Shown in pieces: positions 21,283 through 48,280 of a stretch of 64,000 nucleotides of DNA; the stretch's first letter is position 1, and every line of letters begins with the position of its first letter. This DNA is from Octopus vulgaris (Eukaryota): contig OX597815.1 of the NCBI GenBank assembly GCA_951406725.2, positions 113,274,001-113,338,000 on the forward strand, read 5' to 3'. Below the pieces are notes generated by a model, which saw only the letters and a list, made by a program, of their open reading frames with translations, was not told where the DNA came from and did not search any database. Both the position numbers and the translations under genes were made by a program.

Positions 21283-21756
21283 TCGATTTGTTCGACTAAA
21301 GGTGGTGCTTCAGCATGGCTGCAGTCAGTCAAGTGAATAAAACAAGTAAAAAGAAAAAAGAAAAAGAATACAGCTTATTAATATATAAATATAAATAAGA
21401 AATTGAAAACAAAACAACAAATTGAACACTTACAAATTCAATTCAATTTAAATATTTTACACAAATGACACACCTCATAAATTACAGCTGTTTCCACTTC
21501 ATTTCTTATATATATATATATATATTATTCCATCTCCTATGTTCCTGCTTCAAGCTTTCACTCTATACACGCCAGCTCAATTTGATTCGTCCGCATTAGT
21601 CGAAAGACACCTGGTGTTATATTCTTGTTGTTTGTATTTGTAATTGTGTAACATGGTCTCTGTTATTTTTTCTTTGTTGTCGTACACATTCGCTTACTTT
21701 CTTACAAAAGAATCTAATGCTCAAAGCATTGACTTTTGGTGGGCAACCAGATTTGA

Positions 21757-21817
21757 ACAGTCTCCAGTGTAACTGCCCGAAACTGTAAGAACAATCTGGA
21801 AATTTGACTGATGAAAG
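21757..21817 (+). ncRNA. Non-circularly permuted hammerhead motif, copy C
   Basis: ACAG-TC/TCCAG..CCC-GAAA-CTGT..CTGGA..GA-CTGATGA. Stem III pairs across a GUC site; stem II is mismatched. Confidence 0.55.
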
Positions 21818-21944
21818 AAGGCCACGAATGACCCGTCCTTTTTTTCTTTTTTCTTTTTCCTCTATTTGTTGCTTTTCCTGTCCGCATTTGTATCCTCTAT
21901 CTGTCCGGATGTTTTATTGTCCTCTATTGCGTTTTTGTTCCATT

Positions 21945-21960
21945 ATAGATAGATAGATAT

Positions 21961-22018
<58 letters not shown>

Positions 22019-22180
22019 CACACACATACATACATACATACATACATACATACATACATACATACATACATACATACATGCATACATACATACATGCATA
22101 CATACATACATGCATACATACATGCATACATACATACATACTTACATACATGCATACATACATGCATACATACATACATG
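21945..22180. repeat. (ATAG)n(CATA)n microsatellite
   Basis: Visible directly. Confidence 0.96.
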
Positions 22181-31869: not shown

Positions 31870-33127
31870 AGTAAGGTATATGGTAAACTTTGACAGCTAC
31901 TCATTTTGTGCCATTATTATATTTTGACAATCTTTATTTTATGTTAGAAAGCTGACACATTATTTCTTTATTCTAACTCATTTTGCACTTTATAAAGTAT
32001 TTATAAATCATTTTTTTGCTATTTTTGTTTAGAGATGGATAAGTCAGAAATTCGTACAGTTTTGAAATATGAGTTGTTTCTTGGAATTACAGCATCACAG
32101 ACAGCTCGGAATATTAACAGAGTATTTCATTCTAATGTTATTACACAGCAGACAGTATAAAATTGGTTTGCAAAATTTTGTTCTGATAACTTTGACCTCA
32201 CAAATGAGCAACGCAGTCAACCAGAAACAAAGGAGGATAATGACAAACTGAAAGCCACTGTCAATTCAGATCCATCTCAAAGTGCCTGTGAATTATCGTT
32301 GTTATTTGGTTTTAGCAAGCAACCAATATTGACTCATCTAGTTCAAATCGATAAAGTGAAAAAGTTGGATAAGTGGGTTCCACATGAACTCAATGAAAAT
32401 CAGAAACAGCGACATTTAGAAGCCTGCATTATGCTACTTTCTCGTCACAAAAATGAATCATTTTTGAATCGAATTGTAACAAGTGATGAGAAATGGATCC
32501 AATACAACAACCGTAAACATTCAGTACAATGGCTGAACAAAGACAAGCCACCAAAACACAGTCCAAAAAGCAAAATTCATCAAAAGAAGCTGATGGTGTG
32601 TGTTTGGTGGTCTGGCGCAGGTGTGATCCATTACACTTTCATTAAACCTAGCTCATCAATCATGGCCAAGGTATACTGCAGCCAACTGCACCAAATGATG
32701 CAGAAACTTACAAAAAACTGCCTAGATTAGTCAACAGATCCACTCCTATTTTATTGCAAGACAACGCCAAACTACACATTGCAAAAATGACATTGGCAAA
32801 ACTATAGGAGTTGGAGTTGGAGGCCCTGCATCATCTAAAGTACTCACCTAATCTTGCCCCCACTGACTACCACTTCTTCCAGAATTTGGATAACTTTTTG
32901 ATAGGAAAAAACTTAATTCCGATGATGCTGTAATTCAGGCCTTCCAAGATTTTATTGATTCTAGATTACCAGTCTTTTACAGTTCTGGGCTGGACAAGCT
33001 ACCACTGAAATGGCAAAAGTGTATTGACAATATGGGTGCATACTTTGATGAATAAAACTATTCCTTGTATTTATAAAACATTAGCAAACTTTTTTCTTTT
33101 CTACAAATTTCATACTTGACGATCTAA
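31870..33127 (+). mobile_element. mariner element (cecropia/Hsmar1-like), left TIR not found
   Basis: Right end AATTTCATACTTGACGATCTAA-TA; contains a transposase pseudogene. Confidence 0.85.
32035..33055 (+). pseudogene. Near full-length mariner DD34D transposase pseudogene
   Basis: MDKSEIRTVLKYE..*..KVKKLDKWVPHEL..IVTSDEKW..LLQDNA..YSPNLAPTDYHFF..GAYFDE*, with a premature stop and frameshifts. Confidence 0.95.
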
Positions 33128-34963: not shown

Positions 34964-35431
34964 TATATTATAATTCTTTTATTTGTTTTAGTTATTTGAT
35001 TGCAGCCATGCTGGAGCACCACCTTTAATCAAACAGATCGATATATATATACATATACATATATATAACCATCATCATCACCATTTAGCATCCGTTATCC
35101 ATGCTGGCAAGGCTCATTTGGTTTGATCAGGGATAGTAAGCTAAGGGCTTCATCAGATTCCAGTCTTATTTGGCCTGGTTTTTACAGCTGGATGCCCTTC
35201 CTAACACCAACCACTCCAAGAGTGTAATGGATGCTTTTACGTGCCACCAGCCTGGGTGCAAGTTGCATGACACCAGTCTCTGCTGCAACTACTATCTCAC
35301 TCAGCTTGATGGATCTTCCTTCTCAAGCACAGCATATTATATATATATATATATATACATATATGAAATGAATGTCTTATAAAACTATTCTGCACATATA
35401 ATAACAGCCATACCAACAATCCAACGCACCT

Positions 35432-35486
35432 CCATCATCAGCTGTCCAACGGATATCACTCTGTTTTTGACACCTGAGCAGTACCA
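35432..35486 (-). ncRNA. Non-circularly permuted hammerhead motif, copy D
   Basis: Minus: GG-TA/CTGCTC-aggtg-TCA-aAAA-C..GGACAG-CTGATGA-TGG. Stem I pairs 5 of 6, stem II 3 of 3; G12>A. Confidence 0.5.
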
Positions 35487-35589
35487 TTCAATCCAAACCA
35501 CTGAGTTACAAGGACATAAACACACTAATACCAGTTATCAAACAGTGGTGAGGGATAAACACAGACACAATGACAAACATAGACACAAA

Positions 35590-44900: not shown

Positions 44901-46006
44901 TCAACTCTCGTAATATCGCATCACAGGGTCCTTTACAAAAGCTTTAAATCCTAGTGGTGAATCTGCTTCTCGAAAAGTGAAGTTGTAGCCGGTATGATCT
45001 TCCAGGAAAAAACAGTTTCTACATTGAATGCACGGTTTGGGTATTCCATTGCTGGTTACATTTTGTACCAATAACTCTGAGTCCAGCACGCGGTAATCTC
45101 CTCCGGTGTTTTCCAGGACGGGTGGAATTTGCTAAGTATTGTGTAATACCCGTAGCGTTTTCATCATCTGCCTGACCATCAGTGCAAGGCATTATAACCA
45201 ATTCGCCTGAGACCGCCTCTGGTTCTGATACAAACTTTTTGTTTTAAAGCGATGTAAATTAAAAACGTCCATCAAAATTCCATATCTATGTTCCAAATAC
45301 CATCATGTTAATGATAACGTTCTTTTACTAAGTTCTTCATTATTTTCAAAAATTAATCAAAATGAAGTCAATGAAAATATAATAAAAGACTTAAGTCATC
45401 AACATACAGATGTTACAGTATAAATGCTATTGGTATCGGATATTTATTGCAAATGTGACACATGAAAAATCTATTTAATAAATATTTTATTTTGAAAATT
45501 AGCATTCATTTCCTTATTCTGTACCAGCACTCTGATATTTAAAAAAAAAAAACAACTAAACTTGTAATTACTAGTGGAACTGTTCATGTTTTATGTTCTT
45601 ATTTCTATTTTGATGAATAAATTGTCTAGTTATGTTTAAGATTTCGCTTACGTCTTCGCTGTCATTATTTTAAGACTTTTGAAAGTATAGCAGTCGAAAA
45701 CATGTTGCGACAGCCAGAATATTATAAAGTCTACCAACTTAACATTACTTGATATTATCGATAGTGGCAAGTGCATTCGCAACATTATTCATCCTATGAC
45801 GGGCAAACAACCTGATACATACATACACACACACACATACACACATACATACATATAAATACATCAAGTACAGGACATCACACGCGCGACAAGTACAGGA
45901 TGAAATACCAAAAAATACACAAGAACAGGACATCACAAAAGAGTGAAAAATACGTAAACACATAACAAGAGACAAGTATGGGACAAAGTACCAAAAGAAG
46001 TCTAAC

Positions 46007-46070
46007 CTCCTCCTCAGTTGTCGACTGTTAATTACTCCCTATTTCGAGCTTTCAACGACAAGATAGGAAA
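46007..46070 (-). ncRNA. Non-circularly permuted hammerhead motif, copy A (intact core)
   Basis: Minus: TTTCCTA-TC/TTGTCG-ttgaaag-CTC-GAAA-TAGGGAG-taattaacagt-CGACAA-CTGAGGA-GGAG. Stem III 8 bp, stem I 6 bp, G10.1-C11.1. Confidence 0.72.
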
Positions 46071-46216
46071 CCTTCATGAAACAGCAGCATCCAGAAATTT
46101 TTTAAATATAAAATTCGTGGAGAGTTAGCGCTTCAAACGAGCGAACAACGATAGAGTGGACGTACAGAGTAAACAATCGACGAAGACAAATATTAAGGGC
46201 CGTTAGGACAAGACGC

Positions 46217-46680
46217 ATGTAACACTGATCGTATTGAGTCGTGTAAATACTTTCTTCCCCTCCCCACTGCTTCGTTAAATTATATATCCAGCATACAAGT
46301 ATATAAAAGTAGCAACAAGTGGTTCGAAGCTTGCATTGGGTATTTTATTTATTTATTTTTTTTTTTTTTTGGTACGAAACCAAAGAAACAATCGTTTTAA
46401 TACGGAAGACTTGTTGGCCTTCGTGGTGCAGTTGCAACAGCAACAGCAATTTCACAGATTTTTACACGGTAGAAGTTTTCGTCTACAGATGATCGTCCAT
46501 TATTATCAATATTTGGGTCAAAGAAAGGAATCCTTACCCATACAGCTAATATTTTCGTAGATACGAAGAAATCTTCAAAGAAGAGTGTAAAAGTTGGTCC
46601 GACGAGAAAAAAGTGCGAGTAGTTTTAAGAAAGTCATCCCCTGCCGAACTCGAAAAATATAGTAAGAAATTTTGAAAGGA
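46217..46680 (+). mobile_element. Gypsy LTR end, PBS and gag start, partial copy 1
   Basis: Direct repeat of 47283-47760. Confidence 0.8.
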
Positions 46681-47282
46681 TATAGAATAAATAGAAGAGA
46701 AGAAAATAGTAGATGAGGAAAAGAAAAAAGAGAGAGAAAATGTCAGGAGATGAGAAAAATGACGTCCAGCTAAGTGCACGTTGCGTCCAGAAAGGACAAA
46801 GGTGACAGAGGCTCAGCGAGCCATAATAATGTTTTTCTCTGCATTAAAATGCATCTGAAATGTAAGATCTTCTCTACCCTGATGATGGAGGCTCGTCTCA
46901 TCCTATGTTGAATGCATCCATGTAGCTGCATTTTGTGATGGACTAAATCTACCAACATTATCATGGATCGCTGTGCCCCAGAAACAGCTGTTAGATTTAT
47001 AATACCTTTCTTCTACCCCTTTAAATTTTTTTCTCGTTTGTACTCTGTGTAAGCCTTGCATAAATATGTATTTATGCATATAAATTCATCATTCATCATC
47101 TGAAAATTTCCACCATTGCTTTCTCTCGTTTTGCATGTATACATATTGTTGTGGAAGGATTCTGACCACTCCACAAATGACTAAAGGTGGATTGACTCAT
47201 TGTTATGAAACAAAGAACTATGAGTGATTGGCAGTTCGAGTTGGTAAGCAGTTCACTGTGAGCCGTGGCTGAGAGCGGTCTC

Positions 47283-48280
47283 ATGTAACACTGATCGTAT
47301 TGAATCGTGTAAGTACTTTCTTCCCCTCCCCACTACTTCGTTAAATTATATATCCAACATACATGTATATAAAAGTGGCGACAAGTGGTTCGAAGCTTGC
47401 ATTGGATGTTTAATTTTTTCTTTTTGGGGTACGAAACAAAAGAAACAATCGTTTTAACATGGAAGACTTACTGGCCTCTGTGGTGCAGTTACAATAGCAA
47501 TAGCAGCAGCAACTGCAACAGCAACAACAAAACCAACAGTTGCTGGAATTAATGTAGAAGTCTGAAAATACTTCAGGTTCGTAACAAATTCAATTGAAGA
47601 ATTCAGCTCTAATCCAAAAGAAAGGATTACTTCCTCTGCATATTTTCGTAGATACGAAGACATCTTCAAAGATGAGTTTAAAAGTTGGTCCGATGAGATA
47701 AAAGTACGAGTAGTTTTAAGAAAGTTATCCCCTGCTGAACTCGAAAAATATAGTAATTATAGTCTGCTGAAGAAACCAGGTGAGATTTGTTTCGATGAAA
47801 CAATTTTTTATCGAAAATGTTCAGTGAAAGAAGTTCCCTGTTCAATATTCGCTGGCAATGGTCAAATTTGGTTAAAAAAAAAGATGAAGATTTCGTCACC
47901 TATTCCGAAGTAGTTAACAGAGAGTGTGAGAAATTCAAATTGGATGAGTTGACTCCGGATATGTCCAAGTCATTAATTTTTGTTCAAGGGCTTACTGCAA
48001 GCAAAGATGCAGATGTACGTTCTTAGATATTAACAAAATTAGAATAGAATCAAAATTTAACTCTGCAGGCAATAGCAGAAAAATGTCAGAGGATTATAAA
48101 TATACGACATAACGCAGATGAAATTGAAGAACAGGAATGCTCTCATATTTAGGTGTGCCGACCGGTACCAGATAAGAAAAAAATGTCAAAACCGGATCCA
48201 TGTTATGGGCGCAGTGGTCTACATTTTAAAAATATTAAACGTTTCAAGCAATGGTAAAATAGGCCATAAAAAAACCTTTC
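47283..48280 (+). pseudogene. Ty3/Gypsy (Mag/K02A2.6-like) gag pseudogene with LTR end and PBS-like TGGCGAC
   Basis: MEDLLASVVQLQ..NSIEEF..AYFRRYEDIFKDEFKSWSDEIKVRVVLRKLSPAELEKYSNY..MFSERSSLFNIRWQ..VNRECEKFKLDELTPD..LIFVQGL. Confidence 0.85.

Follow-up and report, generated by a model that had tools for sequence, protein, structure and literature searches.

Permuted hammerhead ribozymes have been sorted into six block orders by a scheme which, in the accessible text of the report, assumes that CUGAnGA is inseparable from its adjacent paired strands (PMC10085705). In that same text the type-SGC order is recorded from metatranscriptomes only (Eckert et al. 2023, PMC10085705) and type-CSG from two metagenomic examples (PMC10085705). 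Rates given for the SGC and CSG forms in the available excerpts of the literature are 0.004–0.19 per minute. Insertions of 1–2 nt into the hammerhead core are described in PMC3088659, the accessible part of which mentions no added helix.

Two groups of animal retroelements are also relevant. According to the accessible parts of the reports (PMC7229834; bioRxiv 10.64898/2026.07.22.740005), non-LTR retrozymes are non-coding, hammerhead-bearing repeats, likely mobilised by Penelope-like elements (PLEs); they carry a type I hammerhead in tandem units of 150–450 nt and are found as linear and circular monomer RNAs. The Naiads, as far as the available text goes, use (TA)n targets and leave tandem and inverted truncated copies (PMC8557442); they were described without canonical hammerheads, with 10 notes of 'HHR_core' and 8 of 'HHR_half_core' (Craig et al. 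2021, PMC8557442). A search of mostly open literature returned nothing that linked permuted or core-opened hammerheads with animal retroelements, nor any instance of the wiring described below.

Family A, a truncated non-coding repeat with Penelope-like traits

The window analysed here is a stretch of 64,000 nucleotides of the Octopus vulgaris genome (contig OX597815.1, positions 113,274,001 to 113,338,000), the plus strand of which carries at 21525–21944 a repeat that we call family A. This had been described as a non-coding element bounded by (TA)n and (ATAG)n, and both the bounds and the non-coding nature hold, with (TA)n at about 21507–21525 on the 5′ side and (ATAG)n followed by (ATAC)n at 21945–22179 on the 3′ side, but the element is a 5′-truncated copy that retains only the last 420 nt of a unit of ~770 nt. 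That unit is defined by longer copies and contains no ORF in a six-frame reading. A first look gave 4084 candidates, 40 of which were scored (full-length matches, 81–87% identical if the window copy itself is set aside), and a 20-mer located 3′ of the motif has 291 exact matches in the genome.

The copies have a common 3′ end and are truncated to varying lengths from the 5′ side. A microsatellite follows directly after the 3′ end in 72 of 90 copies, and tandem or inverted pieces of the unit were found in up to 14 of the 90 upstream flanks, a figure that includes some internal deletions. Such 5′ truncation, partial tandem and inverted copies and microsatellite targets are traits of Penelope-like elements; the (TA)n targets, the tandem and inverted truncated copies and the position of the motif near the 3′ end are shared in particular with Naiads, as described in the accessible part of PMC8557442. 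In contrast to Naiads, family A has no ORF, the GIY-YIG and PLE-type reverse transcriptase (RT) frame included, and nothing in its sequence linked it to a Naiad RT. As a tblastn search with three RT fragments detected no RT in 150 family A loci, we take the family to be non-autonomous and assign its Naiad parentage by architecture only. Six-frame reading, tblastn and the upstream flanks shared between copies did not reveal an autonomous parent.

Family A resembles the animal retrozymes in being a non-coding, hammerhead-bearing repeat for which mobilisation by PLEs is likely. It differs from them in its ~770-nt unit, its dispersed copies and its pseudoknotted, open-core motif in place of a type I hammerhead.

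We also looked at where the copies begin. In 90 copies taken from C1–C5, a part of the 291 matches to the 20-mer in which internal deletions blur some ends, the 5′ ends decay smoothly: one lies at the predicted cut, three lie within 3 nt of it and 60 copies extend 5′ of it. Since there is no pile-up at the predicted site, cleavage does not set the copy ends, and the distribution is compatible with a circle that is re-ligated, with slow cutting or with none at all. An apparent cluster of 5′ ends at the cut, seen when copies were selected with a pattern from within the motif, was gone in the 90 copies picked 3′ of it and was discarded.

As a separate observation, in family A loci such as L023 and L025 the first 60–330 nt of the unit contain GTAAGT, which resembles a splice donor, and after it a long pyrimidine tract close to the 5′ end, an arrangement that recalls the 5′-UTR intron of Penelope.

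The hammerhead core

All the hammerhead blocks claimed at 21757–21814 are present on the plus strand, and they stand in S-G-C order: the cleavage block ACAG-TC at 21757–21762, comprising the 5′ strand of stem III, U16.1 and C17; GAAA (G12 to A15.1) at 21779–21782, continued by CTGT, the 3′ strand of stem III, to 21786; and the CUGAUGA core strand (C3 to A9) at 21808–21814. The cut predicted 3′ of C21762 (21762/21763) is consistent with hammerhead numbering. Rfam models did not detect the motif: a scan of 21600–21900 at E ≤ 10 gave no hammerhead match, and none appeared among the best 150 of 261 matches for the whole window. The nested three-way junction of types I–III, as in the Rfam models, is not what is found here, where helices I and II cross III and IV.

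Conservation was assessed in an unbiased copy set selected by the 20-mer 3′ of the motif, in which 54 copies reach 36 nt before the cut and 53 could be parsed. The elements of a hammerhead core (CUGANGA, GAAA, NUH and a free N7) are all found: core positions are each conserved in 48–53 of the 53 copies, the six of the CUGAUGA strand in 49–53, and retained in the window copy, N7 is T in 18, G in 16, A in 12 and C in 7, and H17 is C in 50, T in 3 and never G. With N7 free and the remaining core fixed, this pattern of conservation looks like that of catalysis. Among the 29 closest copies the core is only slightly more conserved than its flanks (0.95 vs 0.91).

The explanation that stands up best against a cleaving ribozyme is that the fold is real while its catalysis has been lost or is negligible, the RNA acting as a hammerhead-derived signal for reverse transcriptase binding or recognition. 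The smooth distribution of 5′ ends and the 60 copies that span the site would fit such a role, as would the Naiads, which according to the accessible part of PMC8557442 multiply without canonical hammerheads and 22 of whose 41 ends show nothing in our reading; moreover, the opening of the core described below may be disabling. The catalysis-like conservation argues against it, and so does the complete turnover of stems between families A and C (see below) while the core stays. On balance we consider a purely non-catalytic signal unlikely, and a self-cleaving RNA remains the preferred reading.

Helices I, III, IV and V

The strands of the predicted structure follow one another in the order V, II, IV, III-UH(cut)-I, II′-GAAA-III′, IV′, I′-CUGANGA-V′. 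In family A, stem I consists of 6 bp between 21763–21768 and 21802–21807 that adjoin both core strands, the second strand lying directly against CUGAUGA, and 94% of its cells are paired. Stems I and III flank the cleavage site in the window copy as well. At 21765 this copy has a private change from A to C, and the C-U mismatch that results, the only one in its stem I, probably impairs it. The bulged stem I of the original prediction, TCCAG:CTGGA, relied on precisely this C21765, where 28 of the 29 other copies have A; the pairing that uses it forms in only 1 of 30 copies and, in another count, in 2 of 52 cells, and we discard it. Its CTGG partner belongs to another helix, helix IV, formed by 21747–21753 and 21793–21799. 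At the fourth pair of helix IV, 38 of 46 copies have G-C and 4 have A-U. Stem III occurs in four paired variants across copies, with compensatory variants at two pairs, both sides being changed in 32 and 17 of 54 rows.

Nested folding of the window copy gave a probability of 0.9 for the first five pairs of helix IV and high probabilities for IV and III together, with values near 0 for I and II and near 0.05 for V. Nested folding cannot model pseudoknots, and the near-zero values are as expected if helices I and II are pseudoknots.

Helix V is predicted to close the motif across the opening between A9 and 10.1 through 5 pairs between 21733–21737 and 21816–21820; the latter strand shows no pairing with the strand before GAAA, and its partner would be a run of pyrimidines immediately before the upstream strand of stem II. 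A helix V of at least 5 bp can be drawn in 30 of 53 copies, against 6 of 53 and 8 of 53 with slid controls. No compensatory change was seen for it inside family A, and it is the least supported of the helices.

Crossing helices of this sort could also arise between two units of a tandem transcript, as a strand-swapped dimer that cuts in multimers only. The minimal hammerheads of PLEs work as dimers (PMC4209133, accessible part), head-to-tail copies are common, and helices I and II are absent from the nested fold of one unit. The linkers in families A and C are short and of fixed length, however, as expected of a compact fold in cis, and dimerisation would not close the gap between A9 and 10.1, since no pairing is possible between the strand that follows the core and the one that precedes GAAA. 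We therefore judge a dimer to be improbable and continue with the fold in cis.

A stem II probably completed by an upstream strand

Stem II was said to be unpaired in this copy, but the upstream strand 21741–21745 pairs at 5 of 5 positions with 21774–21778, the strand that has C11.1 at its end, so that stem II ends next to G12 as in other hammerheads. When the register was taken from the sequence rather than from the pairing itself, the upstream strand was paired in 204 of 230 cells, compared to 61 of 184 in the classical register; 6 of the 53 copies, which have indels between the anchors, were left out, as were 2 more of ambiguous register in the fixed-register count. An upstream partner of at least 4 bp was present in 35 of 53 copies and in 1–2 of 53 with four slid controls. 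The third pair is G-C in 30 and C-G in 6 of 46 copies in one count, and G-C in 31 and C-G in 8 of 47 in another, with both strands switched. This switch is a single subfamily event and not eight; part of the copies of that subfamily also have helix IV altered on both strands. Considered by itself, an upstream partner of 5 bp also turned up in 764 of 20000 local shuffles. A stem II with an unpaired 5′ base is known from retrozymes and from minimal PLE hammerheads (PMC7229834, PMC4209133, in their accessible parts).

These counts bear on the view, taken in the original prediction, that the motif is of the ordinary type-SGC and that the stem II formed by the strand after CUGANGA has decayed, either in this copy or in the family as a whole. 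The block order is indeed that of type-SGC (PMC10085705, accessible text), family B in the same window has a classical stem II of 3–5 bp in 20 of 25 copies, and a 3-bp classical stem II can be seen by eye at some arthropod Naiad ends. A family consensus with GGG after CTGATGA(A), pairing with CCC, had been anticipated, but patterns with CTGANGA followed by GGG, with or without one extra base, have 0 matches in the genome, compared to 71 for the same core without the GGG. Moreover, a classical stem II of at least 3 bp occurs in just 2 of 53 and 2 of 58 copies and is missing in all subfamilies while the core is kept, and it is with the upstream strand that the one before GAAA covaries. The ordinary type-SGC reading is in this way largely refuted, by the very feature on which it was staked, and it fails there because, and only because, the partner of stem II lies upstream; we hold it to be more improbable still than a dimer. 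An SGC form with a vanishing stem II had also been our own first reading, and it was dropped when the pairing counts bore out the upstream strand.

If stem II is completed upstream, the chain would therefore be open between A9 and 10.1. We know of no structure or experiment that shows a helix to be tolerated at this position. The motif is like type-SGC (HRIMA-1 and variants) in its block order, its short linker between stem I and stem II and the presence of an extra helix by stem I′. It is unlike type-SGC, as presented in the accessible text of PMC10085705, in that the stem II partner comes from upstream and is not a strand starting 0–2 nt after CUGANGA, which leaves block C broken. If A9 is joined to the stem II strand that lies upstream, the connectivity becomes the C-S-G of type-CSG; unlike type-CSG, the motif ends inside block C, between A9 and 10.1, and is probably closed by the added helix V. 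From that connectivity we infer that, in the simplest view, the open form is the nematode CSG form circularly permuted, which would place it outside the six listed orders.

Over the whole structure, 83.6% of 1444 cells are paired, against 29–46% in slid controls. Cells with both sides changed number 77, compared to 33 in shuffles, an excess that is inflated by the kinship of the copies. As the MAFFT alignment leaves a 1-nt register difference ungapped, the whole-structure count misplaces stem II for copies with 22-nt spacing, and the fixed-register count (above) is the cleaner of the two. A chance arrangement in an AT-rich repeat, which would be compatible with CTGATGA alone occurring at chance frequency in the window (10 observed, 9.9 expected) and with a descriptor (perfect core, stem I at least 5/6, stem III 4/4) designed after the motif had been seen, is extremely unlikely in view of the 2 descriptor matches in the window (the motif at 21757 and one with its cut at 46061, minus strand) compared to a mean of 0.007 in 300 dinucleotide shuffles, the core conservation and the pairing counts above controls, and is refuted by the compensatory changes in stem III.

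The core and helices I–IV, with compensatory changes in II, III and IV, are thus supported from sequence. The window copy is, in our moderately confident assessment, a worn copy of a likely self-cleaving hammerhead in S-G-C order with an upstream stem II and a chain open between A9 and 10.1, carried by a repeat that is probably non-autonomous and Penelope-like.

Related repeats in the window

Two other repeats of the window have the same block order. Family A had been proposed as an independent family using the same topology; it is a separate repeat, and blastn between the motif regions of the three repeats gave no similarity, but its independence is doubtful, because families A and C have the same spacing. 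Family B lies on the minus strand at 45850–46290, with its cut at 46061 and an upstream partial tandem near 47282–47756; it has 1202 first-look candidates, N17 is C or A, and its spacing is that of family A. Family B is compatible with a classical stem II, which means that the open form is not required by all the S-G-C repeats found here. By eye, a competing bulged upstream strand can be drawn in family B.

Family C is represented at 35338–35494 (minus strand) by a decayed 3′ tail of the Naiad_Obim/Ovul type, truncated inside the motif and with GAAA mutated. The Naiad_Obim and Naiad_Ovul tails have the same layout as family A and match family C of this genome, the motif of which has 313 exact pattern matches and, in 12 of 30 loci, has a C-terminal RT fragment upstream of it. 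Two truncated loci and one duplicate were left out of the family C set, and 3 duplicate loci were dropped from another set. The upstream stem II strand of family C starts 22 nt before the cut, as in family A; across both families it stands 21–22 nt before the cut, together with the same helix IV. Comparison of the majority pairs of C and A showed both sides changed at 4 of 5 pairs in helix II, 6 of 6 in I, 2 of 5 in III and 1 of 5 in IV, that is, at 13 of 21 positions of helices I–IV, each of which is still a standard pair; the fifth pair of helix IV is mis-registered for family A and was counted as unchanged. This conserved layout around changed stems points to common descent of families A and C with turnover of stems.

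At C5:88.767–88.769 Mb, copies of families A and C (L013 and L101) are arranged tail to tail at a distance of about 670 bp, probably by way of a common microsatellite target.

A proposed route of propagation

In the model that we propose, helices IV and III would fold first as a hairpin, and I and II would then close as pseudoknots in cis. The RNA would be cut after C21762, so that tandem transcripts could be processed into ~770-nt monomers. By analogy with animal retrozymes (PMC7229834, accessible part), a host ligase might rejoin the monomers into circles. These circles could then serve in trans as templates for a Penelope-like reverse transcriptase primed at (TA)n, an activity that would produce 5′-truncated tandem and inverted copies.

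Hammerhead motifs at Naiad ends

To place the motif among Naiads, the last 420–480 nt of 41 consensus 3′ ends (PMC8557442 supplement) were read by eye, with names assigned from header order. An upstream stem II of 4–6 bp was seen in 8 of them (Bfor, Chem-3, Amil, Movir-2, Plae, EuTe, Obim and Ovul), and 6 others had S-G-C blocks or parts of them with stem II different or unseen. One end (Esco) was ambiguous, 4 nematode ends carried an intact CSG form and the remaining 22 had nothing in view.

Taken together with family A, these ends suggest a broader proposal, to which we give about an even chance: that this is a seventh natural hammerhead wiring, present in thousands of copies in animal genomes, in which the chain enters a doubly pseudoknotted four-way junction between A9 and 10.1; that it is the hidden ribozyme of many Naiads, from comb jellies and corals to cephalopods, and a circularly permuted version of the CSG form that nematode Naiads have kept; and that it drives circle-templated copying of non-coding satellites like family A. 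If the RNA does cut, the CUGANGA strand and stem II can no longer be taken as a rule to form a single unbreakable block, non-circularly permuted hammerheads extend from environmental RNA to animal genomes, and the missing Naiad hammerheads are, for part of the clade, a search artefact. For the engineering of ribozyme switches, a helix that occurs naturally at A9/10.1 would provide a new site as well. What is new here are the within-family compensatory changes, which suggest that the upstream stem II is under selection, and the identification of natural copies suited to direct assay. Among 48 copies, 9 (L146, L147, L150, L177, L178, L181, L204, L210 and L215) combine a perfect core with perfect helices I–III.

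Some further features of the Naiad ends were noted by eye. The intact type-CSG motifs of Naiad-1, -2 and -3_Nbra and of Naiad_Hcon have stems I–III fully paired. In the Amil, Chem-3, Movir-2, Plae and EuTe ends an apparent hairpin separates helix V from the upstream strand of stem II, so that the junction would be five-way. No hammerhead is in view in the Naiad ends of bivalves, hemichordates and some cnidarians, but these share a different, GC-rich motif directly behind the stop codon that might be another structured RNA. Finally, at 32161–32727 the plus strand of the window contains a 189-aa open frame of a mariner-type Transposase_1 (PF01359, E 5e-23).
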